Below, one piece after another: positions 6,967 to 23,758 of a stretch of DNA of 64,000 nt. The DNA is taken from the NCBI GenBank assembly GCA_014297435.1, contig JACOQA010000002.1:160001-224000 (forward strand), given 5' to 3'. The notes beneath the pieces are model-generated. The model searched no databases. It had not been told where the DNA came from and saw only the letters and a program-made list of their open reading frames with translations. The first letter of the stretch is position 1, and every line of letters starts with the position of its first letter. This stretch comes from Candidatus Nanohaloarchaea archaeon (lineage in GTDB: Archaea > Nanohalarchaeota > Nanosalinia > Nanosalinales > Nanosalinaceae). Both the position numbers and the translations under genes were made by a program.

Positions 6967-8030
6967 GAATACTTTTTATGGAAAGATGGACCTCTGATCC
7001 TAGAGGAGGAACAGAGTCAATAAAAACCCTTTTTGAGGAAGTAAGCAAAGAACACGAAACGAAGTTCATATGGAGAGGCAACAGAAAAACCGAGGAGGGC
7101 GAGGAAGCCGCCAAGCTTTATTCGAACTCTATCAGCCCTTACGTACCTTTGGAAGTTGAGAAATTATTGCTTTTCCTTGAACCTCAACTTACCGGTCTCT
7201 ACGAAAGAATCGACGAATTTGATCCCGATCTGATAGTTACGCAGTCAGAGTCCTCATATATTGCAGTTAAGTACGCTCAGGAAAACGACTGCCGATCATG
7301 CGTGTTCTTGAGAGCATGGGAGCTTCTCTACGCTTCCGAAAAAACTCACGGAGGAAATATGATCGTCTCCAAAATTGCGAACTCGGCTATAAGGCCTTTA
7401 AACAAAAGGCTGGCCGACTATTGCCTCGAGAATGCCGATATTCTTGTAGCTAATAGCAAATATACTGCCGGAGTGTATGAGGATTACATAGAGAGAGATC
7501 CCGAAGTAGTCTATCCCTTTGTTGATCTTGAGAAGTATAGAACGGAGCCTGGCGAAAAGATTCTCCATGTAAATCCCTCGAAGGATAAAGGAATTGATCT
7601 GACTCTTGATGTTGCCGAGGGAATGCCGGAAGAACATTTTATTATCGCTGGAAACCCTAGCAGCGAAATAGCTGAAAGAATAGAGGGTCTTGAAAACGTT
7701 GAATGTCTTGGATATGTAGAGGATATGAAAGAGGCATATTCTCAGACCAAGATTGCATTAGTTCCATCAAAATGGGATGAACCCTTTGGGAGAATACCTA
7801 TTGAAGCAGGAGCTTCCGGTATACCTACGGTAGCCAGCGATCGAGGAGGTTTGCAAGAGTCAGTCGGAGAAAAAGCGCTCCTAGCTCTTAATCAAAAACC
7901 GGAAAGTTACATCGAAAAGATTCGACAAGTAGATGAGAGCTATGAAGAATATTCCGGGAAAGCCAAGAAAAATGCTGAGGAGAAGAAGATAGACCATCAG
8001 ATTAATAGATTTTTGAATTTAATTAGTTGA
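6963..8030 (+). CDS. Glycosyltransferase family 4
   Basis: GGTE, KGID, EPFGRIPIEAGASGIP, RGGLQE. Confidence 0.93.
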   Translation: MRILFMERWTSDPRGGTESIKTLFEEVSKEHETKFIWRGNRKTEEGEEAAKLYSNSISPYVPLEVEKLLLFLEPQLTGLYERIDEFDPDLIVTQSESSYIAVKYAQENDCRSCVFLRAWELLYASEKTHGGNMIVSKIANSAIRPLNKRLADYCLENADILVANSKYTAGVYEDYIERDPEVVYPFVDLEKYRTEPGEKILHVNPSKDKGIDLTLDVAEGMPEEHFIIAGNPSSEIAERIEGLENVECLGYVEDMKEAYSQTKIALVPSKWDEPFGRIPIEAGASGIPTVASDRGGLQESVGEKALLALNQKPESYIEKIRQVDESYEEYSGKAKKNAEEKKIDHQINRFLNLIS

Positions 8031-8151: not shown

Positions 8152-8922
8152 TTATCTTTTAACCTTTATGTGGTTCTCGCTCTCTCGACTTCCTACATCA
8201 TATAGCTTGAATTCTTTATCTTTCAAGAATTTCTTTAGTTCTGCTTCTGAACCGCCGAACTTCTTGATTCTGTCTCCATGAAGTTCGATGAATAGAGTGT
8301 TTGCGGTTTCTAAGGTTTTTTCTAAACCCTTTAGAACTTCCAGTTCTGCACCTTCTACATCTATCTTGATTACGTCGGGTTGTTCAATTTCATGTTCGCT
8401 GATGAAGTCGTCTCCTTTCCAGGTCTCTGTACTCATATCTCCTTGATTAGATATACTTGCCTCACCTTCTCCTGCTTCTCCTGATTCTTCTTTTAGCATC
8501 ATCTCTGAATTTTGATTCATCAGTGCGACTTCGAAGACTTTACCGTTAATGCTGTTGAGTTCAAAGTTTCTTCTCAGATGCTCTGCGTTTTTCGGGAAGG
8601 GCTCGAAGCCGTAGACTTTGGCTCCTGTTTTACCTGCAAAGCAAGCATGTGTTCCAATATTGGCGCCTATATCATAGAACGTATCAGATTCATCAAGTTC
8701 TTCTATTATGGATTTAATGACAGGTTTTTCGTCTTTGAAGTTCTTTACCCGGTTGTATTCGGTTGGAGAAGTAATGGTGAAGTTACAGGAGATTTCATTT
8801 ATCTCTGTTGTTTTTCTGCCTTTCCGGAGCGTAAACTCTTGCTTCAGAAAAGAAGCTACATATCGTATCTTCCCAGGATTCTTAACAAGTTTCAGTACTT
8901 TTTTAGAATATCTTTTTATCAT
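8152..8922 (-). CDS. FkbM-family SAM-dependent methyltransferase (glycan methylation)
   Basis: YDIGANIG, FEP, IKIDVEGAE; ATG 8922 preferred because longer starts overlap the divergent gene at 8943. Confidence 0.9.
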   Translation of the reverse strand: MIKRYSKKVLKLVKNPGKIRYVASFLKQEFTLRKGRKTTEINEISCNFTITSPTEYNRVKNFKDEKPVIKSIIEELDESDTFYDIGANIGTHACFAGKTGAKVYGFEPFPKNAEHLRRNFELNSINGKVFEVALMNQNSEMMLKEESGEAGEGEASISNQGDMSTETWKGDDFISEHEIEQPDVIKIDVEGAELEVLKGLEKTLETANTLFIELHGDRIKKFGGSEAELKKFLKDKEFKLYDVGSRESENHIKVKR

Positions 8923-8942
8923 TGGATGATCTCTGATACAAT

Positions 8943-9774
8943 ATGTCGCTTTATTCTTTTTACAAGAAATGGGTCCTTCCGAAAATCGAGACTCGCCGTG
9001 GATCAAATTTCATCTGTCGACATCTAAAGAAGTTGTCTCTAGGCAGTCTGGAGTCTGTTCCAGTATCAGAGAGAGAGAGAAGGGATAGGAGACAAAGAAT
9101 GGGATAATCTGATAATATTGGATGCGTGTCGGCACGATCTTTTCGAGGAGGTTGTAGGGGAATCCGATTACCGTTATTCTCTAGGCTCCAATTCTTCTGA
9201 ATTTGTAGAAAAGAATTTTTCTGAAGGAGATTGGTCTGATACTGTTTATGTGACAGCTAATCCACATTTTCACAAGACTCATTTTGAAAGTTTAACAGGA
9301 AAGAAGGCCGAGGAAGTATTCCATGAAGTTTTTCATACCTATGAGACAGACTGGAATAAAGACGAAAGAACTATTATGCCTGAAGATGTAGCTCGCGATG
9401 CTGAAACTGCAGCAAACCTATTTCCTGATAAGAAACTAATTATACATTTTATGCAGCCGCATTATCCCTTTCTCAATTCCGATTTAGAGGAAAGCGGTAT
9501 CAGAATAGTTGATGGAGAGGGCGGAAAAACTATTTGGGAGAGAGCTGAAAGGGGGGAAATAGATAAGAGAGAAGTGCGGGGTGCTTATAAGAGAAATCTC
9601 GAAATCGTAATGGAGTATGTAAAAGACTTGAATTTAGAAGGGACGACTAGGGTTACTGCTGACCATGCTAACTTGTTTGGAGAAGGAGGAATATATGGTC
9701 ATCCGAAGGAGGCTCACGTTAAGCCCCTACTTAGGGTACCATGGTACGATTTAAAGGCCGCTAGGGCCAATTGA
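8943..9774 (+). pseudogene. AlkP-superfamily (sulfatase-like) gene, frameshifted at a (GA)6 repeat
   Basis: ATG 8943 gives MSLYSFYKKWVLPKIETRRGSNFICRHLKKL, homologous to the paralogs' N-termini. The catalytic part (WDNLIILDACRHD, TANPHF, HFMQPH, TADH, YGHP) is in the +1 frame, which has a TAG at 9040-9042 and no start codon before the conserved WDNLIILD motif. Confidence 0.85.
9068..9080. repeat. Dinucleotide microsatellite A(GA)6
   Basis: agagagagagaga at the frame junction of the 8943-9774 gene. Confidence 0.9.
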
Positions 9775-11062
9775 TGCCTTTTGTGATTCCATCATCTAGT
9801 TTATGTCTAATTTTCCTTCCTTCTATTATCAAAGCTTCATCCATACTCTTTAGGTCCTTTCTGCTTATCTGATTGAATTCTGCCCAGTCTGTCACTATAA
9901 GTGCTGCGTTCGAGTTCTCTATCGCTTTCTGGTAGCTTTCCGTGTACTCGATGTCGGGATGTCTTTCTTTCATGTTCTGGATTGCTTCTGGGTCATAGGC
10001 TTTAACATCAGCTCCTTTCTGTTTTAGTTCGGAGATTATATCGATTGCCGGACTCTGTCTTATATCGTCTGTTCCCGGTTTGAAAGCAAGTCCGAGAATC
10101 GCAACTGTCTTATTTTCAAGGCTGGGATAGTGTTCCTCTAGTAAATCTACGAGCCTGGTTTTCTGTTTCTCATTAACCTCTATAGTGCTCTCCGTTATCT
10201 TTGGGTCAACATTGTTTTTCTCCATGAAGTTGATTAGAGCTCTAACGTCTTTCGGGAAGCAAGATCCGCCGAAACCAGCTCCGGAGTCAAGAAAGCTCCT
10301 CTCTATCCGAGAGTCCATTCCGATTCCGTCTGCAACCTCGTAGACATCAATTCCAAGCTCTTTGCACATGTTTCCGATCTCGTTTATGAAAGATATTTTT
10401 GTTGCGAGTAAAGAGTTCGAGGCATACTTGATAAGCTCTGCAGCCTTTAGAGATGTCCTCATAATTGGAGCTTCGAACCCTTCGTAGACCTTCTCTAAGG
10501 TTTCTCCAGACTTTTCATCTAGCTCGCCAATAACTATTCTATCGGGTTCAAGAAAGTCGTTCAAAGCTGTTCCCTCTCTGAGGAACTCAGGGTTCATACA
10601 GACTCCGAAGTCCTTGCCCACTTTCTTTCCTGAAACTTCTTCGAGTATGGGTATTATCTCTTCCTCGGTGGTTGTCGGTACAACGGTGCTTTTCACGACA
10701 AAGACGTGGTAGCTGTCTTTGTTCTTAATTCCGTGAGCTGCGTCTTTGGTCGCTTGTTTGATGTAGTCGAGATTGATGTCCCCATCATCTTTCATGGGGG
10801 TACCAACAGCTAAAAATGTTATATCAGAGTCTCTTATTGCTTCTTCTGTATTGGTTGTTGCCCTGAGTTTATCTTCCGAAACCATCTTTTCTAGAAGTTC
10901 GGGCAGATCTTCCTCGTAGATCGGACATTCTCCGCTATTAATCTTATCGACTTTCTCTTGGTCGATGTCGATACAGGTCACATCGTGTCCTTTTGAGGCC
11001 AGCCCTGTTCCCGCGGGCAGACCTACGTAGCCGGTTCCGACGATACTTATATCCATAAACAT
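9761..11062 (-). CDS. ugd: UDP-glucose/GDP-mannose 6-dehydrogenase (AglM-like)
   Basis: GTGYVG, KSTV, NPEFLREG, GFGGSCFPKD, GLAFKPGTDD. Confidence 0.96.
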   Translation of the reverse strand: MFMDISIVGTGYVGLPAGTGLASKGHDVTCIDIDQEKVDKINSGECPIYEEDLPELLEKMVSEDKLRATTNTEEAIRDSDITFLAVGTPMKDDGDINLDYIKQATKDAAHGIKNKDSYHVFVVKSTVVPTTTEEEIIPILEEVSGKKVGKDFGVCMNPEFLREGTALNDFLEPDRIVIGELDEKSGETLEKVYEGFEAPIMRTSLKAAELIKYASNSLLATKISFINEIGNMCKELGIDVYEVADGIGMDSRIERSFLDSGAGFGGSCFPKDVRALINFMEKNNVDPKITESTIEVNEKQKTRLVDLLEEHYPSLENKTVAILGLAFKPGTDDIRQSPAIDIISELKQKGADVKAYDPEAIQNMKERHPDIEYTESYQKAIENSNAALIVTDWAEFNQISRKDLKSMDEALIIEGRKIRHKLDDGITKGINWP

Positions 11063-11109
11063 CAAATTTGAGAACAGCCATTTAAGCCTCTCGACCGAAA
11101 GTATTCTTA

Positions 11110-11835
11110 ATGAAAGGACTCATACCTGCGGCAGGTAAAGGTACACGGATGAAGCCTTTCACAAAGGCTTACCCTAAAGAGCTTCTGCCTGTTGGTGAAA
11201 AAGCCGTTATTGAACATGCAATAGAAGACCTCAAAAACGCAGGTATAGAGGAAATAGTAATTGTAGTAGGATGGAAGCAACACGCAATCCTTGACTACCT
11301 AGGTTCGGGTAAAGAAATAGGAGTTCAGTTAACTTATGTTGTTCAAGACGATAGAAATGGTCTTGCTGGTGCGGTCAAAGCGGGAGAGCATGTTATCGGT
11401 GATGAAGAATTTGCAGTTATTCTTGGAGACAATTATGTCGACAACAAGAAGTCCATGAAGGATATAGTCAATTTTCATGAAGAAAAAAACATGGATGCCA
11501 CTATAGGAACTTTCAAGCCCGACGATATAACCTCTTATGGGGTTATAGATCCTGGAGAGAACAATATTGTTAAGAGGATGGTTGAGAAACCTTCTAAAGG
11601 GGAGGCGCCTTCAAACATCGCGATCTCCGGAATGTATGTCTTCAAACCCGAAATCTTCAATACCATAGAAAAAATAGGGAGGGGCAAGGGCGACGAATAC
11701 CAGTTAACTGATGCGATTGACAAAATGAGGCAAAACGGTTCAAAAGTTGGCTACAGGAATATAAAGGGATCAAGGATTGATGTGGGGACGCCTGAAAGAC
11801 TGAGAGAGGCAAACAGAGAGTTTGATTTGAGGTAA
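11110..11835 (+). CDS. Sugar-1-phosphate nucleotidyltransferase (AglF/GalU/RmlA-like)
   Basis: AAGKGTRMKP, PKELLP, LGDN, VEKP, DVGT. Confidence 0.93.
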   Translation: MKGLIPAAGKGTRMKPFTKAYPKELLPVGEKAVIEHAIEDLKNAGIEEIVIVVGWKQHAILDYLGSGKEIGVQLTYVVQDDRNGLAGAVKAGEHVIGDEEFAVILGDNYVDNKKSMKDIVNFHEEKNMDATIGTFKPDDITSYGVIDPGENNIVKRMVEKPSKGEAPSNIAISGMYVFKPEIFNTIEKIGRGKGDEYQLTDAIDKMRQNGSKVGYRNIKGSRIDVGTPERLREANREFDLR

Positions 11836-11840
11836 TCGAT

Positions 11841-12647
11841 ATGAGCGCGGCTTTCGAGATATACAAGTACTATAGATATAAGTTCTATTCAAAGTACAGT
11901 CATCTAAAGGGCGCCACTTTCCTCCACCGTCAACTCAAAACTCTAGCTCAGAAAGGAATCGAGAAGTTTGATGGCAAAAGCGAATCCATTTTCGAAAAGA
12001 ATGACTGGGATAATTTGATTATTCTTGATGCTTGTCGATACGATCTATACAGGGAGGTAAACGGAGAAGTGGAAAAACGCATAACTCTTGGAAGCGACTC
12101 CCGTCAGTTTATAGAGGAAACATTCTCGGAGGGTGATTTCTCTGATGTGGTTTATGTCACCGCGAACCCGCATTTCTCCGCCTCAAACTTCAGAGAAAAC
12201 ATCGGAAGAGATGTCGAGGAAACATTCCACGAGGTATACCATACGTACGAGACGGACTGGAGTGAGGAAAACGGAACGGTGATGCCAGAGGCAGTGGTCA
12301 GGGATGCCAAGAACGCCAAAAAGCTTTTCCCGGATAAGAAACTGATAATTCACTTTATGCAGCCTCATCATCCGTTTGTTAACTTCGATATCGGAGATGA
12401 TACGGTTGAAAGCAATCCGTGGAGTCTTGCGGAGAGAGGGAAGCTTTCTGAGGAAAAGGTCTGGAAAATGTACCGAGACAATCTCGAGTTCGTGATGCCT
12501 TTCGCCGAACAGCTCTCGGAAGAACTTGGTGGAACTACCGTAATAACAGCAGATCACGGAAACCTGTGTGGTGAAAACGGGCTCTACCACCATCCTTACG
12601 GATCCGATGCTAAAGGCTTGAGGGAAGTTCCGTGGGATAAGAGGTGA
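11841..12647 (+). CDS. AlkP-superfamily sulfatase-like protein (short type)
   Basis: WDNLIILDACRYD, GSDS, TANPHF, HFMQPH, TADHG, HHP, VPW. Confidence 0.85.
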   Translation: MSAAFEIYKYYRYKFYSKYSHLKGATFLHRQLKTLAQKGIEKFDGKSESIFEKNDWDNLIILDACRYDLYREVNGEVEKRITLGSDSRQFIEETFSEGDFSDVVYVTANPHFSASNFRENIGRDVEETFHEVYHTYETDWSEENGTVMPEAVVRDAKNAKKLFPDKKLIIHFMQPHHPFVNFDIGDDTVESNPWSLAERGKLSEEKVWKMYRDNLEFVMPFAEQLSEELGGTTVITADHGNLCGENGLYHHPYGSDAKGLREVPWDKR

Positions 12648-13480
12648 AAAGATTGATTTGGACTAAATTGCATCGGATTTATTCTCATTATATTTTTCCC
12701 AAGGTAAAACACATCAGAGGAACCCATAGACTGATGACCGCAATTCTAAGTAGAGCCTGTGATACTTTGCCTAAAGCGGATGAAGAAGCAATTAAGATCG
12801 AGGAAATAAATTATGATAATTTGATAATTCTTGATGCTTGTCGATACGATCTTTATCAACAAGTAACTGGTAAAAAAGATTATAGAATCTCTACGGGAAG
12901 TAGCTCAAGAAACGTTGTTAAGAGGAATTTTTCAGAAGGCGACTGGTCCGATACCGTGATGATAACAGCAAATCCACACTTTAGTGATCGGCTCTTTGAA
13001 GAAATTACAGGAAGAGAATCGGATCAGGTATTTCACACGGTATTCAAATTATTCAACACGGAATGGAGTGAGGAGGAAGGAACTGTTCTTCCTAGGGATA
13101 TGGTAGATACTGCCCTAACTGCAGAAAAATTGTTCCCTGGTAAGAAAAAGATAATATGGTTTATGCAACCTCACTGCCCATTTATTCCTCTAGAATCTGA
13201 GGAATTAGATAATATTGAGGGTTTAGATTCGGAGGAAAATATCTGGGATAAGGCTGAGCGAGGGAAAATCGGAGATGAAATGCTTTGGACAGCTTACCTA
13301 AATAATCTGAAGTACGTGATGAAGGAGGTAGACGAACTAATAGATAAATTGGAAGGCAGAAGCGTAATCACTTCTGATCACGGCAACCTTGTAGGGGAAA
13401 GTGGTCTTTATGGACATCCTTTAGGTCAGGAAACAAAGGTTCTTAGAAAAGTACCTTTTGATGTCAGAGATCAGAATTAA
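12644..13480 (+). CDS. AlkP-superfamily sulfatase-like protein (short type)
   Basis: NLIILDACRYD, GSSS, FMQPH, TSDHG, YGHP, VPF. Confidence 0.85.
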   Translation: MKRLIWTKLHRIYSHYIFPKVKHIRGTHRLMTAILSRACDTLPKADEEAIKIEEINYDNLIILDACRYDLYQQVTGKKDYRISTGSSSRNVVKRNFSEGDWSDTVMITANPHFSDRLFEEITGRESDQVFHTVFKLFNTEWSEEEGTVLPRDMVDTALTAEKLFPGKKKIIWFMQPHCPFIPLESEELDNIEGLDSEENIWDKAERGKIGDEMLWTAYLNNLKYVMKEVDELIDKLEGRSVITSDHGNLVGESGLYGHPLGQETKVLRKVPFDVRDQN

Positions 13481-13505
13481 AACCATCTGAGGTGATTGGA
13501 TTACT

Positions 13506-14924
13506 ATGACAACCTATATTATAGGAATGGATGGGATGGATAAGCAAATTGTAGAAGAGAATATAGAGGAGTTTCCTAATCTGTCCGAATTAACTATAAC
13601 GGGTCTTGAATCGGTAACGCCGCCGATCACAGTCCCTGCATGGGCATGCTCGTTTTCAGGTTTGAATCCGGATAAGCTTGAGACTTTCGACTTCCAGATG
13701 GTTGACGTCAAGACCTATGAGTTCAGCCCGGCGAACCACGAGTTCTTGCAGAAGAAAGGCTTCTGGAACTACTGGAACGACTCCTCAACCATCTTCTCGA
13801 TACCAGGAACCGAGACACCGAAACTTGATGGTTATTCGCTTGGAGGGTTCTTCGACCTCGAGAACCTGGAAACGCATCCTGAAAGCCTGAGAGACGAAAT
13901 CGAAGAGGAGATCGGTGAGATAGAGATCACAAACATGTTCGACCTCAACAGTGAGAAAGAGAGAAGAGAGGCAGCCTATCACAACTTCGAGGTAAGGAAG
14001 AAAATATTCGATCTGTTATTAGAGAAAAACTCTGATGTTTACTTCCCGGTATTCAGACTTCCGGACACCATGATGCACCACACCGATAGTGAGAAGCACA
14101 TGGTCGAATCCTACAGAGAGGTAGATTCATTCGTAGGTGAGCTCAGAGACAAGATGAGCGAAGACGATAACCTGCTAATAGTGTCGGATCACGGCGCTGT
14201 AAAAGCTAAGAGAAGGTTCTTCATCAACACATGGCTCAAGCAAAATGGTTTTGCAAAGCAGAAGGAGGGAGAGGAGAATTCCTTCCTAGATGATTTGGCG
14301 ATGAAGCTGGGCGATATAGGTCAGAGACTTGGATTCAGAGATCTACTCGTAAAGCTAAATAATTTGGCGCAGGAGAAAGCCGGCAAGAACTTCGCACCTA
14401 GAAAGACCAAAGCTCTTGACTCGATGGCCTGGCAGGAGACGGAAGCGTTCTCTTACATGACAGGGGTCTGCGCATACGCAGGAATCTGGATAAACGATGA
14501 ACGTTTCTCGAAGGGAGTAGTTGAAAATACTCAGGAAAAGAAGCAGGAGATCGCATCAGAGCTGGAGAAAAGGAAGGAGGTAAACAAGGTTCGCTTTAGG
14601 GAAGAGGTATACGAGGAAGATATAGAGAAGTTCCCTGACCTTATAGTAGAGTTCTATGAAGACACGAAAGCAGCGTTGGGCTTTCATCCTGAGGTTACAG
14701 CAAGCGTCTCCAGCTATATGCACAGAAAAGAAGGCGTTTTAATGGCGGAAGGATCTAATATAGTCGATTCAGATGAGGAAGCTGAGCTTATCGATTTGGC
14801 GCCGACCTTGCTTCACCTACACGATTACCCTGTTCCGAATCACATGGACGGAGAAGTTCTAGAAATGGTCAAGAAGGGAGATGTGGAGAAAGAGGTGTCG
14901 GAGGTGGCAGGTCTCGATATATGA
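13506..14924 (+). CDS. AlkP-superfamily protein, nucleotide pyrophosphatase/phosphodiesterase-like (long type)
   Basis: IGMDG, SVTPPITVPAW (Thr nucleophile position), PDTMMH, SDHG, H...DLAPTLL. Confidence 0.88.
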   Translation: MTTYIIGMDGMDKQIVEENIEEFPNLSELTITGLESVTPPITVPAWACSFSGLNPDKLETFDFQMVDVKTYEFSPANHEFLQKKGFWNYWNDSSTIFSIPGTETPKLDGYSLGGFFDLENLETHPESLRDEIEEEIGEIEITNMFDLNSEKERREAAYHNFEVRKKIFDLLLEKNSDVYFPVFRLPDTMMHHTDSEKHMVESYREVDSFVGELRDKMSEDDNLLIVSDHGAVKAKRRFFINTWLKQNGFAKQKEGEENSFLDDLAMKLGDIGQRLGFRDLLVKLNNLAQEKAGKNFAPRKTKALDSMAWQETEAFSYMTGVCAYAGIWINDERFSKGVVENTQEKKQEIASELEKRKEVNKVRFREEVYEEDIEKFPDLIVEFYEDTKAALGFHPEVTASVSSYMHRKEGVLMAEGSNIVDSDEEAELIDLAPTLLHLHDYPVPNHMDGEVLEMVKKGDVEKEVSEVAGLDI

Positions 14925-15703
14925 TTGCCAAGATCTACAAGTTCTATCACTCGGAGTTCTATGAAAGGTTCAACCATCTAAAGGGAGCGCATTTCCTGAA
15001 CCGGAAGCTTAGCAGTCTGATAGACTTGGAGCTCGAAACAGTAGATGAAGAACCGACTCATATACGTGAGAGGGAGTGGAAGAACCTGATAATACTCGAT
15101 GCACTAAGGTATGATATTTACTCGGAGAAGTTCTCGGAATCTGACAGCATCACAAGCGTAGGGAGCCATTCTCGTGAGTTTATTAAGAACACCTTCTCCG
15201 AAGGAGACTGGTCCGACACTGTGCTCGTGACGGCGAACCCTCATCACTCCCCTGAATGGTTCGAGAACGCTACTGACAGAAAAATCGAAGATACCTTCCA
15301 TGCGATCTACAGGACTTATGAAACGGACTGGTCAAATGAAGGATCAGTCGGAGCTGATAACCTCGTGAGAGATGTGAAGAGCGCTAGGAAACTTTTTCCG
15401 GATAAGAAGATTATTGTTCACTTCATGCAACCTCACGCACCATTAGTCGGTTCCGATAAAGATACAGGTCATATAAGGTCTATGGGTGAGGGATCGAGAG
15501 AAGAGGCCGTTAAAGCTTACAGAGAAAACCTCGACTATGTTTTGGAGTATGTGAACGAACTAATGGAGTTCTTCGATGGTAGAACAGTAGTAACAGGAGA
15601 TCACGGTGAGTTGCTTGGAGAATGCGATTTTTACTTTAGACATTTCTACGGTCTAAACGCGAAACCTGTAAAGCAAGTACCTTGGCATTTAATTAACGAA
15701 TAA
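14921..15703 (+). CDS. AlkP-superfamily sulfatase-like protein (short type)
   Basis: WKNLIILDALRYD, GSHS, HFMQPH, TGDHGE, VPW. Confidence 0.85.
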   Translation: MIAKIYKFYHSEFYERFNHLKGAHFLNRKLSSLIDLELETVDEEPTHIREREWKNLIILDALRYDIYSEKFSESDSITSVGSHSREFIKNTFSEGDWSDTVLVTANPHHSPEWFENATDRKIEDTFHAIYRTYETDWSNEGSVGADNLVRDVKSARKLFPDKKIIVHFMQPHAPLVGSDKDTGHIRSMGEGSREEAVKAYRENLDYVLEYVNELMEFFDGRTVVTGDHGELLGECDFYFRHFYGLNAKPVKQVPWHLINE

Positions 15704-15770
15704 CTTTTGCCTTTGGACAGGAAGCACACCTTATTAAACTGCTTCAACATCAAGTCAAACGTGAGCGATT

Positions 15771-15983
15771 ATGGTAAAGATCGAAGTTGATGACGATATT
15801 TACAGCGTCTTAGAAGCCAGAGCTGCTGAAAAAGATTATGCGGAAACTGAAGAGTATATTGAATATCTTCTGAAGCAGATTGTTGATAAGATCAAAAGAG
15901 AGAAGCAGGAGGACGAAGGTTATTCAGAAGAGGAGGAAGAAAAGGTCAAAGAGAGACTAAAGGATCTGGGCTATTTGGACTGA
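15771..15983 (+). CDS. Small CopG/RHH-like protein with C-terminal KERLKDLGYLD tail
   Basis: N-terminal beta strand (VKIEVDD) plus two helices, acidic linker and LxxLGY tail; TATA-like TTATTAAA ~35 nt upstream. Confidence 0.75.
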   Translation: MVKIEVDDDIYSVLEARAAEKDYAETEEYIEYLLKQIVDKIKREKQEDEGYSEEEEEKVKERLKDLGYLD

Positions 15984-17527
15984 CGAATTAACAAGTCGGC
16001 AATTTTGTCCGCTTCCTCTCCTCTATTCATCCTTCTACCTATTCCAACTATAATATCTCTATCGTCTTCTTTTATGCCGCCCAGCAACACTAGGCAGGCT
16101 ACAAACATAACTCCAAAGATTATTCCTCCAGGAATCAAAGCCCAGACAGGGACAGTGTTCCAGAGAAGATTAAGTCCTAAGTAAACTAGGATTAGGCCAG
16201 GAACTGCAGCTACTACAGGTTTCCATGTGTCTCTGGAGAAGGGGTGGGTTCCTTCAAAGTAGTAGACTTCCAGAAGCAGTAGGGTGCTGATGAAGATTGT
16301 TGAACCTGCTGTGGCTAGTGCGGCGCCAATCATTCCCAAGCCCAGACCGAAGTCGGGTATTAGTACAAAGTTTAAAGCCATGTTCAGAGCTAACTGGGCT
16401 ATGCTGTTCCTGAAAAGTATATGGTTTTTCTCTATTGATTGCAGCACCTGGTCTAAGTGTCCGACTGCTGAGGAGTAGAGCTGTCCTACTGCTAAAATAA
16501 CGAGTACGTTCGAAGCCACGGTGTACTGGCTTCCGAAAAGTATGTGGAGTACTTGTTCTGAGAAGAGGAACATTAGCATGAAGGCGGGGAAGGCCAGGTA
16601 AAAAGTCCAACGTGTCAGGGTTTTCAGCATTTTTTTGAGTCCTTTGCCTTCTTTTTCGGCTTCGGACATGGAAGGCAGCGCTAAACTGTTGAAGGCTTTG
16701 TAAGGTATCATGATTAGTGCGGCGGTCGGCAGTGCGGCGTTGTAAAACCCTACTGTTGCATCGTCCATGAAGTAGCCTAGGAAAGCTGTGTCAGCCCAGC
16801 CCAGGATTGTACCTATCATTCCTGAAAGCACTAAAGGATACGAGTAACGGATCATTTTTCTTCTCTGGAAGTTTACTGATTCTTTTGATCTAATGATTGG
16901 TCCTACTTTGAACTCCATGAAGTAGAATCCTAGTAGGGAGGATAGTACGACCCCTAGCAGCCATCCTCCGGCGGCTCCCGCCACACCCCATCCAAGTACG
17001 ACAAAGCCGATTGTAAAGATTAGTTGTACGATGTTCTGGAAGAACTGGTTTGTGATAACCCGGTACTTCAACTGTTTGTAGGCTACGGTTGTTGAGATGC
17101 TTACACGGGAGAAGACTGAGAACGGCGGTACGAAAGCAAGTATCTTGATTACTGGAGCCACAGCAGGGCTTTTGAAGAAGTTTTGAGCTAGGAAATCTGC
17201 GGAGATAAACATCAGAACTCCCATGAATATTGAAACCGGTAAAGTAATGTTTAGTGCGGAGTAGACAGCGCCTTTGACTGAGGAGAGATCGTTGTCCATC
17301 CTATACTCGGGAACGTATTTTTTGATGGCTTGGTTGATTGCGAAGAGAGAGATTGTGGTTGCAATACCAAGTATCATCAGTCCTTGTGATAGCTGGCCGT
17401 AGGCGTCCGGACCAACCATTCTTGCGACTATGGCTCTGTAGAAGTATGTGAATATTTTCGAGGCGAACATTCCTACTCCTGTCAACACTGCGCCTTTTGC
17501 CAGCGTGTTCAGCCTCTGGTTGGCCAT
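15971..17527 (-). CDS. Oligosaccharide flippase (Wzx/AglR-like, MOP superfamily)
   Basis: ~14 hydrophobic segments, ARMVGPDAYG, DTAFLGYF...VGFYNAA; ATG 17527. Confidence 0.92.
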   Translation of the reverse strand: MANQRLNTLAKGAVLTGVGMFASKIFTYFYRAIVARMVGPDAYGQLSQGLMILGIATTISLFAINQAIKKYVPEYRMDNDLSSVKGAVYSALNITLPVSIFMGVLMFISADFLAQNFFKSPAVAPVIKILAFVPPFSVFSRVSISTTVAYKQLKYRVITNQFFQNIVQLIFTIGFVVLGWGVAGAAGGWLLGVVLSSLLGFYFMEFKVGPIIRSKESVNFQRRKMIRYSYPLVLSGMIGTILGWADTAFLGYFMDDATVGFYNAALPTAALIMIPYKAFNSLALPSMSEAEKEGKGLKKMLKTLTRWTFYLAFPAFMLMFLFSEQVLHILFGSQYTVASNVLVILAVGQLYSSAVGHLDQVLQSIEKNHILFRNSIAQLALNMALNFVLIPDFGLGLGMIGAALATAGSTIFISTLLLLEVYYFEGTHPFSRDTWKPVVAAVPGLILVYLGLNLLWNTVPVWALIPGGIIFGVMFVACLVLLGGIKEDDRDIIVGIGRRMNRGEEADKIADLLIRQSK

Positions 17528-17579
17528 ACACAGAAGGTTTGACTCCACCTTTATTACCGTTTGAATCCAACTCTAAACT

Positions 17580-18446
17580 ATGTCTGAGTTCGACAAAATG
17601 CTTGTAGTAGGGCTTGATGGGCTTGATTACAGGAAAATCCAGAAATACGACTGCAGCAACCTGATGCTTCAAACATTCGGAAAACTGGATACCCAAGGAC
17701 TGGCCTTGAAAACCCCGATGCTCTGGGCCTCAATAATAACCGGCAAAAGCCCTGGAGAACACGGAATCGATGACATGCTCGCGTTTAAAGGTGAAAAAGC
17801 AAGGAAGCTAGACGATTTAATGGACAGGTTCTTCGGTTTCTTCGGCAGATCAGGTCTACACCTAAGAAAGACCGTAAACTACTATCTTTACGACGACAGC
17901 ATCTCGGTTCCCGACAAAAACTACATGGAAACCGACTCTATCTTTGAAAAAGTCGCTGACTCGAAAGCTTTCGACATTCCAGGCTATTCCGAGTATCCTT
18001 ACATTTCCGGCAAGATGAATGTTGCTAAACTATCCCGTAAAAACCCTCCTGTCTCACGTAAACGCGTGAAGAGGGATATTGACGCCGAACATCTTTACAG
18101 GAAAGAGCAGCTGTTCGAAAATATCGGAGAACATACTCTTTTGATGCAGCATTTCCACTACAGCGACTGGCATCAACACATGTATCTCTCCGAGGAAAAA
18201 GATAGGCAATTATACAAAGAAATGGACGAGCTGGCTGGAAAGATACTTGAGAAAGCCGATGATGATACCTTAGTGGTTTTCTGTTCCGACCATGGTTTGG
18301 AAGATGGCGGGCATAGAGATGAAGCGTTTTTCTCGGTAAACACGGATATAGACGAGAACCAGAGTATTACAACACTTCTTGAGAGCTGTCTAGAACATGT
18401 TGACTACAAAAACAAGGAGGAAACCGTTGAATCAATCGAGGTCTGA
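17580..18446 (+). CDS. AlkP-superfamily protein
   Basis: VGLDG, KTPMLWASIITG, SDWHQH, SDHG, GGH. Confidence 0.83.
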   Translation: MSEFDKMLVVGLDGLDYRKIQKYDCSNLMLQTFGKLDTQGLALKTPMLWASIITGKSPGEHGIDDMLAFKGEKARKLDDLMDRFFGFFGRSGLHLRKTVNYYLYDDSISVPDKNYMETDSIFEKVADSKAFDIPGYSEYPYISGKMNVAKLSRKNPPVSRKRVKRDIDAEHLYRKEQLFENIGEHTLLMQHFHYSDWHQHMYLSEEKDRQLYKEMDELAGKILEKADDDTLVVFCSDHGLEDGGHRDEAFFSVNTDIDENQSITTLLESCLEHVDYKNKEETVESIEV

Positions 18447-18448
18447 AG

Positions 18449-19120
18449 ATGGATCTGGTCTTTCTAGGGATGAATCCGGCAGGAGAAAAAACACTGGAGT
18501 GGTTGAAAGAACGTGAAGACGTAGAATTACTGGTCTCGATAAAAGAAAAGAAAAATTTAGGTCTAATAGAAGAAGAGCGGCCGGAACTAGTTATTTCCTC
18601 GGGGTTCGAACACAAAGTACCAAAAGAGATACTTGAGGTTCCGGAAAAAGGGGTTGTCAACTTACATCCTTCGTTCCTACCTTTCAATAGAGGTGCGCAT
18701 CCTTATGTGTGGCCTTTAATCGATGGAACGCCGGCAGGGGTTTCTATACACTACATGAATGAAGGTATTGATGAGGGTCCTGTTATTTCGAGGAGGAAGG
18801 TTGAGAAAAAAGAGACGGATACTGCTAAAGATCTCTACGACCGTTTACAGCATGAAATGTTCCAATTATTCAAGGATTCCTGGAGGGATATAAAGAAAGG
18901 TGTTGAGGGTAGTGAACAGGATCTAGCTAAAGGAACTGTTCATAAAAGCAGTGATTTGGATGATTTAGCGAGTATTAATCCGAACGAAGAGTTTAAGGCT
19001 AAAGAGTTGGTTGATCTTTTACGGGCTTTAAGTTTTCCGCCTCACGGCATGGCTTCTATCGATGGAAAGTTTCTCGAACTGAATGTACGTGAAAATGTAG
19101 GAGACGAACCCAAGCACTAA
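18449..19120 (+). CDS. Formyltransferase (probable sugar N-formyltransferase)
   Basis: NLHPSFLPFNRGAHP, GVSIH...GIDEGP; glycan-cluster context. Confidence 0.88.
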   Translation: MDLVFLGMNPAGEKTLEWLKEREDVELLVSIKEKKNLGLIEEERPELVISSGFEHKVPKEILEVPEKGVVNLHPSFLPFNRGAHPYVWPLIDGTPAGVSIHYMNEGIDEGPVISRRKVEKKETDTAKDLYDRLQHEMFQLFKDSWRDIKKGVEGSEQDLAKGTVHKSSDLDDLASINPNEEFKAKELVDLLRALSFPPHGMASIDGKFLELNVRENVGDEPKH

Positions 19121-19121
19121 C

Positions 19122-19147
19122 TTAATAAACATGCATAAGTTATGCAT
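19122..19147 (+). promoter_or_regulatory. TATA box (TTAATAAA) followed by perfect inverted repeat ATGCATAA-G-TTATGCAT (candidate operator)
   Basis: TATA at 19122-19129; 8-bp arms at 19131-19147, ending 5 nt before the ATG of an RHH gene. Confidence 0.65.
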
Positions 19148-19152
19148 CTTCT

Positions 19153-19347
19153 ATGCCGAGGAAAACAATTTCTCTGCCTGAAGACCTCGCAGACTTCGTG
19201 GATGATAATCATATCAACCTCTCAAGATTCGTACAGGACAAACTAAGAGAGCTAGCAGAATCCGAAAACACCGAAGAAGAACTCTCCGAAGAACAAGCCA
19301 AGGAAATCGCGAAAAAACTCGAAAAACTCGGCTATCTAGACAGGTAA
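19153..19347 (+). CDS. Small RHH (CcdA/CopG-like) protein with C-terminal KKLEKLGYLDR tail
   Basis: RKTISLPEDL...INLSRFVQDKL is a typical RHH; acidic linker; LxxLGY tail. Confidence 0.8.
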   Translation: MPRKTISLPEDLADFVDDNHINLSRFVQDKLRELAESENTEEELSEEQAKEIAKKLEKLGYLDR

Positions 19348-19357
19348 AAACTATATT

Positions 19358-20122
19358 ATGAAAGTATTCGGAATTGACGCCGCGACATGGGACATGATAA
19401 AACCACATAGAGACGAACTACCCAACTTCGACCGTTTAATGGAAGAATGTGACTACAAAACCGTTACGGTCGAGGAAACACCTAAATCCGCGCCGCTCTG
19501 GACATCAATCTTCACAGGTTTAAGACAGAGCGAACACGGACACAAAGACTTCGTGGTGGACGAAGAACTCCAGAAAAGAGAGGATATCGACGGAACATTC
19601 GTATGGGAAGAACTGGAAAACGTTGACTCCAAAATCCTGCAGGTTCCTGCGGTCATTCCGCCAATCAACTACAACACAAGTTACGAACCGGAAGGTTTCG
19701 GAGTCTCAAGTGACCTAGAAGAACTAGAAGCAGACAGAAAGAAACTGATGCAAAAATCGAAGGAAGTACTCGAAGAAGATCCAGAATTTTTCGCTGTAGT
19801 TTTCATGCAGCTCGACAGGGTAAGCCATTTCTACTGGAACGACAAAGAACTGATCCTCGAATGGTACAAGAAAATGGACGAAGTACTCGGCGAACTGCTT
19901 GAGTACTACGACTTTGACTCGGATGAACCGTTGATCGTTCTTTCAGACCACGGGTTCGCCGAGCACGGCGAAGGAAGAGTACAGACTTTACCTGAGGAAA
20001 CACCTCACGGAACCTTGGAAGGCGATCACCATGAAGATGCGGTTTTAATCACGAAAAACGTTGACTTTGAAATCGATCAACCTGAGGACGTCGGAAAGGC
20101 GATCCTCAATCACTTCAACTAA
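19358..20122 (+). CDS. AlkP-superfamily protein
   Basis: FGIDAA, SAPLWTSIFTG, LDRVSH, SDHGF, GDH. Confidence 0.85.
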   Translation: MKVFGIDAATWDMIKPHRDELPNFDRLMEECDYKTVTVEETPKSAPLWTSIFTGLRQSEHGHKDFVVDEELQKREDIDGTFVWEELENVDSKILQVPAVIPPINYNTSYEPEGFGVSSDLEELEADRKKLMQKSKEVLEEDPEFFAVVFMQLDRVSHFYWNDKELILEWYKKMDEVLGELLEYYDFDSDEPLIVLSDHGFAEHGEGRVQTLPEETPHGTLEGDHHEDAVLITKNVDFEIDQPEDVGKAILNHFN

Positions 20123-20145
20123 TCTTTCAAAGAGGTATCACCACT

Positions 20146-21063
20146 ATGACACTTGAAGCACCTGTAACAAGAGAAGAAATTGAAAACGCGCCTACAAAAG
20201 CTAAAATAAGGGCTGGAGAAGAAGTTGTCAAGAAAGCCCTAGAAAAATACGACACCGAAAACGTAGTAATCGGTTTCACAGGAGGAAAAGACTCCACATT
20301 AACCGCATGGCTCGTCAAACGTGTCTGCGAGGAACACGGCTTTGATAAGCCACGTTTCATGTTCGTAGATCACGGCCAGCACTTCGACGAACTTGAAGAC
20401 TACGTCAACCGGTTAGCGGACGACTGGGGGTTCGACGTAATGGTGGCGAAGAACGAAGACTTGATCGAAAAAGCAGAAAACCCTGGAGACAAGGTTCCTG
20501 TCGCAGAACTTAACGAAAGAAACCAGAGGGAAGCAGAACGGGTCGGAGACTACGAAGAAGTGCCTTGGTTGATGGATACCGAAGCCGGAAACCATCTTCT
20601 CAAGACCGTTCCTATGAACGAACTGCTCGAGAACCATAACATAAAGGCCGTGATTAACGGAGTTCGATGGGACGAACACGAATCTAGAGGCGACGAGGAC
20701 TTCTACAGTCCTAGAAACGATCCGGACCACATCAGAGTCCACCCGATCCTTCAACTGGATGAGAGGGATGTCTGGGATGTTTCCTGGTTCCACATGGTTC
20801 CCGATGTAACAGGCATCGACATAGAAGAGTATCCGGAGACCGAAGAGGACTTACCGGAAGGACTGTCGAAAGACAGCGTTCCAATAAGTCCGAAGTACTG
20901 GGCAGGGTTCAGAAGCCTTGGATCAGAAGTTTCGACAGAGAAAAGCGAGGAAGAACCGGCTTGGTTACAGGATGTCGAGAACACGAAGGAAAGAGCTGGC
21001 AGAGCCCAGAACAAGGACGATAAAGAGATCATGGATAAGCTTAGAGAATTGGGTTACATGTAG
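20146..21063 (+). CDS. PAPS-reductase-family protein, CysD (sulfate adenylyltransferase subunit 2)-like
   Basis: PP-loop FTGGKDS, GVRWDEHESR, RVHPIL, FRSLG, ERAGRAQ...GYM. It lacks the C-terminal ECG(L/I)H of reductases and matches the CysD ER-GR...GYF tail. Confidence 0.82.
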   Translation: MTLEAPVTREEIENAPTKAKIRAGEEVVKKALEKYDTENVVIGFTGGKDSTLTAWLVKRVCEEHGFDKPRFMFVDHGQHFDELEDYVNRLADDWGFDVMVAKNEDLIEKAENPGDKVPVAELNERNQREAERVGDYEEVPWLMDTEAGNHLLKTVPMNELLENHNIKAVINGVRWDEHESRGDEDFYSPRNDPDHIRVHPILQLDERDVWDVSWFHMVPDVTGIDIEEYPETEEDLPEGLSKDSVPISPKYWAGFRSLGSEVSTEKSEEEPAWLQDVENTKERAGRAQNKDDKEIMDKLRELGYM

Positions 21064-21072
21064 AGTTGTGAA

Positions 21073-21120
21073 TACTTTCTTTCACAACATTTCTTTTTCC
21101 TTTTTTAACTGTATTTTTCC
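21073..21120 (+). terminator. Pyrimidine/T-rich archaeal terminator-like tract
   Basis: tactttctttcacaacatttctttttccttttttaactgtatttttcc just after the stop of the CysD-like gene. Confidence 0.5.
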
Positions 21121-21132
21121 AAACTAAGAAAC

Positions 21133-22047
21133 GTGAAATTAAAACTTGTCGCGTTTTTAGCCCTAGTAGTTGTAGCTTCAGGCTGCCTGGGATCTTCACA
21201 GACCCCAGAACAAAAACTTGAATCTCTAACCTCCAAAGCCAACAGTTCCACATACCATATTACCTATGCGGCGGAGCTTGGAGGTTCCGAAGCACTCTCA
21301 GGTTTAATTGGAAGCCCTGAGATCTACAGCCTGAACGGAGACACTAAACACTTAACCACTACAAATCTGCTTGGTTCCGAAACTACTTCGGCAACATACA
21401 AGAAGAATGGGATGACTGTACGCTGTACAGACTCTGCTTTAGGTCTTTCAGAAGGCATAAGCTGTAGCAAAAGCTCTTCTTCCACAACCGCCTCGAGACC
21501 TTCAGAGATGCTGGAAAACGTTCCCAAAATTGCAGTAAACGAGACCGGCACAAGAACTATAGCCGGAAGAGAATGTTCTAACTTCGAACTCAGGGCATCG
21601 GAAAACACCACGACCTACACAGAAGATGTCAACGGCACTATGAACCTCTGTGTCGATAACCAGAAAGGCTACATCGCATCCATGGGGATAAACATCACAA
21701 CAAGCACTGAGCTGAACACTGAAAGGACAAGAAACGCTCTCAGAATGTACGTCAAAGAGTACGATGACGAAGTAAGTCCTGAAGACCTCGAAATCCCTGT
21801 AAATACTTTGGTCTCTCTGAGCTGTGATCCTTTCCACGCAAACATCACTTCTCTAGGTTACACGGGAGAAGCCCAAGTCGAACTTGCCGGAAATAACCAG
21901 ACAGTCAACCTCGAAGAAGGCGAGGAGAGAAGGTTGGACTTTAAGACGTCAAAAAGAAGCAACTACAATACCAAAGTGACTGTTTACGCGGGAGGGAAAG
22001 CCAGTTCGGACAGCTGTACTAACGTAGGAGGCTTCCTGAACCAGTAG
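21133..22047 (+). CDS. Secreted lipoprotein, Cys-containing, many N-glycosylation sequons
   Basis: LALVVVASG|C lipobox; sequons NSS, NET, NTT, NGT, NIT, NQT. Confidence 0.8.
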   Translation: MKLKLVAFLALVVVASGCLGSSQTPEQKLESLTSKANSSTYHITYAAELGGSEALSGLIGSPEIYSLNGDTKHLTTTNLLGSETTSATYKKNGMTVRCTDSALGLSEGISCSKSSSSTTASRPSEMLENVPKIAVNETGTRTIAGRECSNFELRASENTTTYTEDVNGTMNLCVDNQKGYIASMGINITTSTELNTERTRNALRMYVKEYDDEVSPEDLEIPVNTLVSLSCDPFHANITSLGYTGEAQVELAGNNQTVNLEEGEERRLDFKTSKRSNYNTKVTVYAGGKASSDSCTNVGGFLNQ

Positions 22048-23017: not shown

Positions 23018-23758
23018 ATGGCTAAGAAACGTGTCTCTTTAACCCTTGAGGAAGAGATGGTGGAGAAAATAGATGCCGAGGCTGAGGAAAGAGAGTTGAA
23101 CAGGTCGCAGACGGTTGAAGAGATAGCGGAGAAGTACTTTGGTGAAAGAGGTATAGATACAGCGGTTGTTTTCTGCGGAGATCCTGAAGCCAAAAGCCTC
23201 GAACTACATAACGGCAAGCCAGTACTATCACATATACTTGACCATCTTGCCGAGGAAGGTATCAACAGAGCTATACTTCTTTCAGGGAAGAATAAAGAGA
23301 TTGAGGAAAGCTTCGGGTCAGAATACAGTGGTTTAGCGCTTGAATATATTGAGGATGAGCCAGAGGGCACGGCTGCAGCCTTGAAGAAAGTTGAAGGTAA
23401 GGTCGATGGCGAGTTCGCTGCTTTGAACGGTCATGTTATCGCGGATGTAGATATGGATGAAATGTTAAGGTTTCACAGAGAGGAGAGCTCTGTTGCAACG
23501 ATCGCATTGACCTCTGTAGAGGATCCTTCGAGCTACGGTGTTGCAAGATTAAAAGGCAGGAAGGTTCTTGGTTTTGTTGAAAAACCAGAAGATGGCGAGG
23601 AACCTTCGCGTTTGATAAACGCCGGCACCTATATTTTCGGATCGGAGATCTTCTCTATGCTGGAAGAGGAAAGTATAGAGACTGTTTTCAAGAACTTAGC
23701 GGATCAAAAACAGCTTTCAGGTTATATTTACGGTGGAAAGTGGCGTAACTGGGATTAG
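23018..23758 (+). CDS. RHH domain fused to a degenerate sugar-phosphate nucleotidyltransferase domain
   Basis: KKRVSLTLEEEM...LNRSQTVE (RHH); GTAAAL, YGVA, FVEKP, INAGTYIF retained; GxGxR loop and NGD Asp lost. Confidence 0.8.
   Translation: MAKKRVSLTLEEEMVEKIDAEAEERELNRSQTVEEIAEKYFGERGIDTAVVFCGDPEAKSLELHNGKPVLSHILDHLAEEGINRAILLSGKNKEIEESFGSEYSGLALEYIEDEPEGTAAALKKVEGKVDGEFAALNGHVIADVDMDEMLRFHREESSVATIALTSVEDPSSYGVARLKGRKVLGFVEKPEDGEEPSRLINAGTYIFGSEIFSMLEEESIETVFKNLADQKQLSGYIYGGKWRNWD

Follow-up and report, generated by a model that had tools for sequence, protein, structure and literature searches.

How do halophilic archaea that sulfate their surface glycans activate the sulfate, and which enzymes hand it to the sugars? 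This question is raised by a block of genes at positions 8943-21063 of a 64-kb stretch of DNA from a nanohaloarchaeon (contig JACOQA010000002.1, positions 160,001 to 224,000; the whole stretch is called the window below). The block codes for seven proteins like those of the alkaline phosphatase (AlkP) superfamily and for one protein that resembles CysD. An earlier note on this DNA had proposed a glycan sulfation system in which CysD makes adenosine 5'-phosphosulfate (APS) and the AlkP enzymes act as position-specific sulfotransferases. We find that the CysD-like gene is linked to AlkP proteins of one family, PF01663, and not to the other four copies, which we call group A. This link is what our analysis adds. 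AlkP-superfamily sulfotransferases in haloarchaeal N-glycosylation are already known (Agl30/Agl31; PMC11980604, in its accessible sections). We give a probability of about one half to the reading that the block holds a sulfate-activation module that is independent of CysN and CysC and feeds AlkP-type sulfation of glycans. This reading concerns the following genes.

8943..9774, + strand: group A AlkP-like copy 1, frameshifted (reading frames, alignment)
11841..12647, + strand: group A AlkP-like copy 2, 268 aa
12644..13480, + strand: group A AlkP-like copy 3, 278 aa
13506..14924, + strand: B1, AlkP protein of the nucleotide pyrophosphatase/phosphodiesterase (NPP) type, PF01663, 472 aa, Thr at the nucleophile position (E 4e-25)
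14921..15703, + strand: group A AlkP-like copy 4, 260 aa
17580..18446, + strand: B2, PF01663 NPP-type AlkP protein, 288 aa, Thr at the nucleophile position (E 2e-12)
19358..20122, + strand: B3, PF01663 NPP-type AlkP protein, 254 aa, Ser44 at the nucleophile position (E 4e-24)
20146..21063, + strand: CysD-like PP-loop protein, 305 aa, starting 23 nt downstream of B3 (PAPS_reduct)

The link between B3 and the CysD-like gene emerged from a comparison of 80 genome loci around relatives of the CysD-like gene (23 nanohaloarchaeal, 57 from Halobacteria), which we examined by local profile searches. Of the 23 nanohaloarchaeal loci, 16 have a same-strand B3-type gene no more than 1.5 kb upstream of the CysD-like gene; in a further one the distance is 2.3 kb. 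The locus from Candidatus Nanohalalkaliarchaeum (L021) contains both genes in one 571-codon frame (5417-7129) that is interrupted by neither a stop codon nor an N. In this fusion, residues 9-252 match B3 with 43% identity and residues 265-571 match the CysD-like protein with 60%. For four of the remaining five loci upstream sequence is lacking; in the fifth (L013) no B3-type gene occurs within 10 kb. In L021 and L023 the pair stands among genes that are unrelated to glycans, and it hence persists where the surrounding gene order is lost. Together, B3 and the CysD-like gene constitute a conserved two-gene unit.

The association extends to a second phylum. In Halobacteria, a PF01663 gene adjoins the CysD-like gene in 23 of 57 loci, in several orientations. 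The proteins encoded by these genes are about 470-520 aa long, with 23-27% identity to B1 and B3 alike. In a tree built from 79 CysD-like proteins (L022 was left out as too short), the PF01663-adjacent loci fall into a Halorubrum/Halopenitus/Haloparvum clade, Halorutilus and one uncultured lineage. A 24-member clade of Haloferax, Haloplanus, Halolamina and Halorussus has no adjacent PF01663 gene; the neighbours there are housekeeping genes or a second CysD-like paralog. Such a paralog lies directly downstream in L025, L041, L048, L054 and L067 (Halobacteria, Haloferax included), often followed by Dph6. We considered Dph6 as a functional partner and rejected it; its adjacency is taken as incidental because the protein matches the model of the housekeeping diphthine-ammonia ligase above cut-off. 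Co-occurrence across genomes, which the earlier note had suggested as a check, is thus found for the CysD-like gene with PF01663 genes and not with the four group A copies. These neighbourhoods give good support to a functional coupling between the CysD-like enzyme and PF01663 proteins.

What kind of enzyme is the CysD-like protein? It contains a PAPS_reduct domain (E 9e-23), a domain also found in reductases of 3'-phosphoadenosine 5'-phosphosulfate (PAPS). CysH reductases carry a catalytic C-terminal cysteine in an ECGLH-type motif. As the earlier note held, the window protein lacks this cysteine: its single Cys (residue 61) is not conserved, and an ECG[LI]H motif is absent. A family profile built from 22 sequences matches CysD (1zun_A) with E 6.2e-15; of its 310 positions, 25-113 and 155-309 are aligned. 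The alignment spans both halves and takes in the GxRxDE block as well as the ERxGR...GY tail at the C-terminus. The PP-loop TGGKDS is invariant in 22/22 family members and aligns with SIGKDS of 1zun_A, and so do the GVRWDE...R...E...S.R block and the C-terminal ERAGRAQ..LGYM with their CysD counterparts. The same profile matches the PAPS-reductase-like domain of human FAD synthase with E 2e-10 in its N-terminal part (positions 15-105 and 172-227), PAPS reductase with E 5e-6 and yeast-type FMN adenylyltransferase with E 0.026. The description of the protein as CysD-like rather than CysH- or FAD1-like is favoured by this ranking. Its best NCBIfam matches are CysD models, and its nearest Atlas clusters are automatically named sulfate adenylyltransferase (subunit 2) and nodulation protein.

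The likeness to CysD (NodP in rhizobia) thus comprises the PP-loop, the GxRxDE...R...E...S.R block, an FRSLG motif, the ERxGR...GY(F/M) tail and a length of about 300 aa. The differences are an identity of 22-23%, the absence of cysN and cysC beside the gene in the window and in the 80 loci, and a partner that is an NPP-type AlkP protein, paired or fused. The NCBIfam scores are far below cut-off; the protein is therefore a divergent CysD-type enzyme with CysD as its nearest solved relative, and not a CysD equivalog. Relatives are 60-98% identical across Nanohaloarchaeota and about 52-57% identical in Halobacteria, among the matches listed; a genome scan returned at least 439 of them, including orthologues in Haloferax and Halorubrum. 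A tblastn search of plasmids gave 32 records, consisting of 5 haloarchaeal members of the same family, 2 from Desulfolutivibrio (36-37% identity) and 25 others. Among the matches listed for the latter (18 of 25), identity is 22-23% over 85-91% of the length; 14 of these 18 are annotated cysD, while 3 from E. coli and 1 from Sinorhizobium are unannotated at the match. Near the 37%-identical bacterial relative on a Desulfolutivibrio plasmid (L088:6845-7801), at a distance of 2.7 kb and beyond an insertion sequence element, are genes for an annotated sulfotransferase, a DegT aminotransferase and the sugar-modification protein WbqC.

Canonical partners of CysD were looked for in the window. As the earlier note had stated for CysN, APS kinase and P-loop sulfotransferases, we found no member of the CysN/EF-Tu, APS-kinase, Sat or Sulfotransfer families among the 59 window open reading frames (ORFs) scanned. 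The Walker A motif G....GK[ST] is absent from every ORF of at least 60 aa in the window. The GTP_EFTU family is represented neither among the 59 ORFs nor among the neighbour-family representatives scanned. We also considered ORFs 23755-24237 and 24244-24906 as a hidden APS kinase and rejected both, as neither has a P-loop; the former looks like a small membrane protein. Synthesis of UDP-sulfoquinovose was likewise rejected as a route, as the epimerase at 24957-25898 scores 47 bits against a synthase cut-off of 575 and the epimerase at 22066-22962 gives no match.

Annotated plasmids and one further locus suggest a link of the CysD-like gene with sulfate. On pHALXA01 of Halopiger xanaduensis the gene order is PF01663 AlkP, PiT-family permease, CysD-like, GT4 glycosyltransferase, sulfatase, GT4, PF01663 AlkP, GT4 and sulfatase. 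The first three of these genes span L086:4307-7918, and the permease between the AlkP and CysD-like genes has as its sole NCBIfam match the CysP sulfate permease (134 bits, below cut-off). A 66%-identical PiT/PHO4-family permease again lies between PF01663 AlkP and CysD-like genes in Halorubrum kocurii (L080:7274-10891), where the surroundings contain epimerase, GT2 and integrase-like genes. The presence of this set near an integrase-like gene suggests a mobile three-gene module. On pNATPE01 of Natrinema pellirubrum, aglM, aglF and a flippase gene are followed by a CysD-like gene. Three other plasmid copies of the CysD-like gene occur in non-glycan contexts. PF01663 relatives were found on 29 plasmids, all haloarchaeal, with glycan clusters in both of the contexts examined. 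Group A relatives were found on 48 haloarchaeal plasmids and lie in glycan clusters in 4 of 5 contexts examined; some of them are named "LTA (lipoteichoic acid) synthase family protein" by PGAP.

We then asked what the AlkP-like proteins themselves can tell. They had been taken for seven paralogs; judged by their sequences they are instead two unrelated families, comprising four group A copies, which are genuine tandem paralogs, and three PF01663 proteins. Pairwise identity among the group A copies is 38-53%, and just 21-23% among B1, B2 and B3. Comparison of group A with B1-B3 gave no significant similarity, and an hhalign alignment of the group A and B3 profiles is limited to an SDHG motif at a probability of 3%. 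B1, B2 and B3 pass the PF01663 gathering cut-off of 23 bits with 89.5, 48.0 and 86.4 bits. Group A has no match to this family and reaches no Pfam or NCBIfam cut-off.

Several features stated in the earlier note apply to both families. The formylglycine motif [CS]xPxR is absent from all seven proteins, and the gathering score of PF00884 (type I sulfatase) is not reached (best 18.2 bits, cut-off 25). Metal ligands and the Ser/Thr position are retained: D63, S85, H176, D238, H239 and H251 are invariant in 12/12 aligned group A sequences, and D7, S/T44, D153, H157, D197 and H198 are retained in 42/42 aligned PF01663 sequences. H224 aligns in B1, B3 and the nanohaloarchaeal rows only and is ambiguous in B2 and Halobacteria. 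A hydrophobic N-terminus or evident signal peptide is also absent from all seven (maximal Kyte-Doolittle 19-residue mean at most 0.81); by the same measure, the flippase reaches 2.65 and a lipoprotein-like ORF 2.19. For group A this maximum is 0.18-0.59, and the N-terminal multi-helix membrane domain of the EptA/MCR type is missing. All seven proteins are thus predicted to be cytoplasmic with complete metal and nucleophile sites.

B1-B3 resemble the NPP family in keeping the bimetal ligands and the Ser/Thr nucleophile. They differ in being short, predicted to be cytoplasmic and devoid of a signal peptide, and B3 carries Ser instead of Thr and has a CysD-like enzyme as its genomic partner. The nucleophile motif of NPP enzymes is TFPN. 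As we read its sequence, B3 has no Asn two residues past the nucleophile, and the B3 family has an invariant Trp at position 48.

Group A is more difficult to place. Three copies have weak C-terminal matches to PglZ, Sulfatase or STM4013, and the 9118-9774 piece of copy 1 has none. An ESM Atlas model of the 11841 protein (predicted template modelling score, pTM, 0.84) has a sulfatase, STM4013 and EptA as structural neighbours. A group A family profile run against the PDB finds the phosphoethanolamine transferases EptA, EptC and MCR-1 as its best, weak matches (E 1.4e-3 to 0.3), with HxxxxHxP, SDHG and GExGxYxH as common motifs. The likeness to these enzymes and to STM4013/SEN3800 lies in the second-His region, the two latter motifs and the Atlas neighbours. 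Unlike EptA, EptC and MCR-1, the group A family belongs to halophilic archaea, occurs in glycan clusters and has no N-terminal membrane domain, and the E-values are weak, 1.4e-3 at best.

The gene starts reported earlier are exact at 11841, 12644, 13506, 14921, 17580, 19358 and 20146, whereas the copy at 8943 turned out to be frameshifted. Its N-terminal 54 codons (8943-9104) are out of frame with the catalytic part (9118-9774, open to 9774), and the shift sits inside an (AG)6 run (9068-9080), where tandem repeat finder scored nothing. The frameshift may stem from a sequencing error, mark a pseudogene or act as a slippage-prone switch. Copies 2 (12009-12049) and 3 (12815-12855) share a 41-nt DNA segment of 95% identity that spans the ILDACRYD metal-ligand motif. 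This exceeds the overall similarity of the two copies and may reflect gene conversion.

The surroundings of the block indicate what may be decorated. The window has a base composition of about 44% G+C, and the encoded proteins are very acidic. It encodes the archaeal markers AglB/STT3, SecDF, NAC, a pelota-like protein and TYW2, and the closest relatives of its proteins are from Nanohaloarchaeota (for example, 90% identity with a protein of Candidatus Nanohalobium constans). Block 8943-21063 lies inside a surface-glycan cluster of about 28 kb (about 2072-30346) that is anchored by AglB and also holds a cupin and two epimerases of the short-chain dehydrogenase/reductase (SDR) type. The glycan context claimed earlier is confirmed by Pfam and well supported, and we take the block to be the decoration part of this nanohaloarchaeal cluster. 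The interleaved UDP-glucose 6-dehydrogenase (Ugd) and flippase genes had been recognized; an AglF-like nucleotidyltransferase and a sugar N-formyltransferase had gone unlisted. The further features of the cluster are these.

2072..8030, + strand: six consecutive glycosyltransferase genes (GT4/GT1-type, GT2) (Pfam)
8152..9006, - strand: FkbM-family methyltransferase (PF05050 E 9e-21; TIGR01444 110 bits, cut-off 37.7)
9761..11065, - strand: UDP-glucose 6-dehydrogenase, AglM-like (TIGR03026 486 bits, cut-off 190; AglM model 533, cut-off 670)
11110..11835, + strand: sugar-1-phosphate nucleotidylyltransferase, AglF/GalU-like (PF00483 E 3e-48)
15971..17548, - strand: MOP/Wzx-type flippase (PF13440 E 2e-31; PF01943)
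18449..19120, + strand: sugar N-formyltransferase (PF00551, PF18216; closest NCBIfam model dTDP-4-amino-4,6-dideoxyglucose formyltransferase, below cut-off)
21065..21088, + strand: hairpin followed by a T-rich tail, directly past the stop codon of the CysD-like gene (consensus match only)
21133..22047, + strand: lipobox-bearing ORF, 304 aa, 7 N-x-S/T sequons (sequence motifs, hydropathy)
22066..22962, - strand: SDR sugar epimerase/dehydratase
23018..23758, + strand: protein with ribbon-helix-helix (RHH) and NTP_transferase domains
26301..27398, - strand: GT4-family (PF00953) phospho-sugar transferase
27398..30346, - strand: AglB/STT3 oligosaccharyltransferase (PF02516; TIGR04154 below cut-off)

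With its lipobox-type N-terminus and sequons, the product of ORF 21133-22047 is possibly a surface glycoprotein and a candidate substrate. In L020 and L023, a lamin-tail-domain protein takes its place after the CysD-like gene. Two other neighbours recur near the CysD-like gene in both phyla: a relative of the RHH-NTP_transferase gene lies within 6 kb in 32 of the 80 loci, and a relative of the SDR epimerase gene at 22066-22962 in 26. An Rfam scan of 8000-23000 gave zero matches. A promoter and terminator scan gave counts near the shuffled expectation; its promoter consensus was that of bacterial sigma-70.

Genetic precedent for AlkP-type sulfation comes from Halobacterium salinarum. According to the available portions of PMC11980604 (Zaretsky et al. 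2025), the N-glycans that were described first outside eukaryotes are sulfated, and Agl30 (VNG1056C) and Agl31 (VNG1057C) are N-glycan sulfotransferases that sulfate two sugars, one enzyme for each. Deletion and heterologous expression showed this, and both proteins are sulfatase-like with an AlkP core. In Haloferax volcanii, according to PMC3892788, Agl7 "contributes to the sulfation" of a hexose carried on dolichol phosphate, as the earlier note had stated. The idea of AlkP-type sulfotransferases therefore has genetic support and is less new than that note held, because of the 2025 paper. Agl30 and Agl31 as described there, and presumably Agl7, are like the window proteins in their AlkP-like core and in belonging to an AglB-anchored halophile glycan cluster, and Agl30 and Agl31 are described as acting before flipping, on the lipid-linked glycan (PMC11980604, PMC3892788). 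As an arylsulfatase-family member by that description, Agl31 is set apart from the window's non-Pfam family of about 270 aa and its PF01663 proteins. The window cluster includes a CysD-like gene, whereas the accessible text of PMC11980604 names no sulfate donor and no mechanism; the words "PAPS", "donor" and "adenylyl" have 0 occurrences in it. Our literature search found no publication that names a haloarchaeal sulfate donor and none that assigns a function to the halophile CysD-like family, for which it gave COG labels only.

We favor sulfate activation as the function of the pair because of the CysD likeness, the CysP-like permease, the sulfatase-rich neighbours and the Agl30/Agl31 precedent. 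The chemistry that follows is our inference throughout. The CysD-like enzyme would form APS by adenylating sulfate, with no need of CysN or an APS kinase. B3, its PF01663 partner, would use up APS directly and thereby pull the unfavourable reaction forward. B3 may take the sulfuryl group from APS on Ser44 and transfer it via the Ser44/bimetal site, or it may pass it on. B1, B2 and the group A copies would then decorate the lipid-linked glycan at the cytoplasmic face. This glycan probably bears hexuronic acid as well as N-formylated and methylated sugars. By analogy with Agl30 and Agl31, the group added by B1, B2 and group A is most likely sulfate. Equally conjectural are three parts of the earlier proposal: a covalent Ser/Thr-sulfate intermediate, APS as the donor, and a position of its own for each of the seven AlkP proteins. 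We hold only tentatively, and with more doubt than confidence, its most general form: a PAPS-independent two-component engine of two halophile phyla, in which a CysN-less CysD-type enzyme would make APS, and an NPP-type AlkP enzyme that is physically coupled to it, by fusion in one lineage, would take the sulfuryl group on its active-site Ser and deliver it to sugars or to further AlkP-fold transferases.

A number of points weigh against such a module. Canonical CysD requires CysN, and the EF-Tu-type G1 GTPase motif expected of CysN is absent from the window and the 80 loci. Every curated CysD cut-off is missed (NF003587 76.8 of 195 bits, NF009214 49.6 of 413, TIGR02039 48.9 of 396.6). NPP enzymes normally attack phosphorus; on APS this would result in hydrolysis and not in sulfuryl transfer. 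The L021 fusion is known from a single metagenome-assembled genome. Among 54 assessable Halobacteria loci, 31 have no AlkP gene next to the CysD-like gene, which there sits among housekeeping genes (Dph6, glutaredoxin, glucose dehydrogenase). Sulfotransferase activity of the group A proteins is the weakest link. Their best solved relatives are phosphoethanolamine transferases; they occur within 10 kb of a CysD-like gene in just 4 of 23 nanohaloarchaeal loci and, at strong score, in 0 of 57 Halobacteria loci; and a PAPS-reductase-family gene is found in 0 of 5 group A plasmid contexts. Enzyme activity and glycan composition are predicted here from genes alone. Finally, VNG1063H, a third AlkP protein of the Agl30/Agl31 cluster, with "LTA synthase family" as its top BLAST match, had no detectable sulfation role as reported in the accessible text of PMC11980604. 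Some group A relatives carry the same annotation.

Phosphoryl-group transfer stays a live rival because of those solved relatives of group A (E 1.4e-3). In that case the AlkP proteins, chiefly group A, would attach phosphoryl-containing substituents to the glycan or to its lipid carrier, or trim them there, by way of a Ser/Thr-phospho intermediate. Candidate groups are phosphoethanolamine, glycerol phosphate and nucleotide-linked groups, and the CysD-like protein would have a separate role. The motifs common to group A, EptA, EptC and MCR-1 (E 1.4e-3 to 0.3) are consistent with this explanation, and so are a Kdo2-lipid A phosphoethanolamine transferase among the Atlas neighbours, the PGAP label of some group A relatives and the very name of PF01663 as a phosphodiesterase/pyrophosphatase family. 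However, EptA and LtaS enzymes use lipid donors and work on the outer side of the membrane, whereas group A and B1-B3 have no membrane domain and are predicted to be cytoplasmic. The phosphoethanolamine transferase matches are weak, and the pairing and fusion of PF01663 and CysD-like proteins, the CysP-like permease and the sulfatase-rich contexts are left unexplained. Experiments support sulfation as the role of AlkP-core glycan enzymes in haloarchaea, as far as the available part of PMC11980604 goes. On balance we consider phosphoryl transfer unlikely. We find it quite improbable that B3 and the CysD-like protein form a core nucleotide or cofactor module, such as an FAD1-type FMN adenylyltransferase with a nucleotide pyrophosphatase, that merely lies beside the glycan cluster. 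Nanohaloarchaeota genomes are small, and the high conservation of the pair within this phylum (60-98% identity for the CysD-like protein and 70-91% for B3, among the matches listed) would suit such a module. So would the location of the pair outside glycan clusters in L021 and L023, the many CysD-like genes among housekeeping genes in Halobacteria and the profile match to human FAD synthase (E 2e-10). That match covers the N-terminal nucleotide-binding part only, whereas the CysD match extends over the whole length and the C-terminal tail. In addition, neither an FAD synthetase nor cysH was found in the plasmid tblastn search among the matches listed (25), and in unrelated Halobacteria the gene recurs beside aglM, aglF, flippase, GT4, sulfatase and CysP-like permease genes.

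The resemblance to CysD would also be explained if the protein fed cysteine biosynthesis by assimilatory sulfate activation, with the AlkP genes as unrelated glycan enzymes; glutaredoxin and glutamate-cysteine ligase are indeed neighbours in some Halobacteria. Yet nanohaloarchaea are reduced symbionts and unlikely sulfate assimilators, CysN, CysC, CysH and sulfite reductase are absent from the window and the 80 loci, and the fusion of a CysD-like with an AlkP domain finds no explanation. We judge this role to be very unlikely. A defence system, with PAPS-reductase-like and PglZ-like AlkP proteins working as their counterparts do in DNA modification by BREX, Dnd or Ssp, was rejected on the PADLOC result. 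Three group A copies have weak PglZ matches below cut-off (E 6e-4 to 6e-3), and the CysD-like protein has a weak SspD match of 18.6 bits. That is its sole PADLOC match, however, and the seven AlkP proteins have zero. The surroundings consist of glycan genes with no helicase, methylase or other defence partner, and two phyla keep the CysD-like gene as part of their conserved core. The probability of this explanation is close to nil.

Sulfate activation coupled to AlkP-type decoration is thus the reading that we carry forward. A CysD-like enzyme that is paired with, and in one case fused to, a phosphatase-like enzyme points to an undescribed route of sulfate activation for sugar decoration. The pairing, the single fusion and the CysP-like permease that appears twice provide concrete candidate genes for uptake, activation and hand-over of sulfate. 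To our knowledge, direct use of APS by an AlkP-fold enzyme would be a sulfuryl-transfer chemistry not known from other systems. Model haloarchaea of the genera Haloferax and Halorubrum are genetically tractable, and the orthologues of the CysD-like protein in these genera make the question directly testable. The sulfotransferases of haloarchaeal sulfated N-glycans were named only in 2025, going by the accessible text of PMC11980604. If the two-component engine outlined above exists, it would add a new mechanistic class of sulfotransferase and, if APS is used directly, could extend the known sulfuryl-transfer chemistry and lead to PAPS-free sulfation biocatalysts. It would also provide the sulfate-donor pathway for the sulfated N-glycans, and possibly for the sulfated glycolipids, of haloarchaea.

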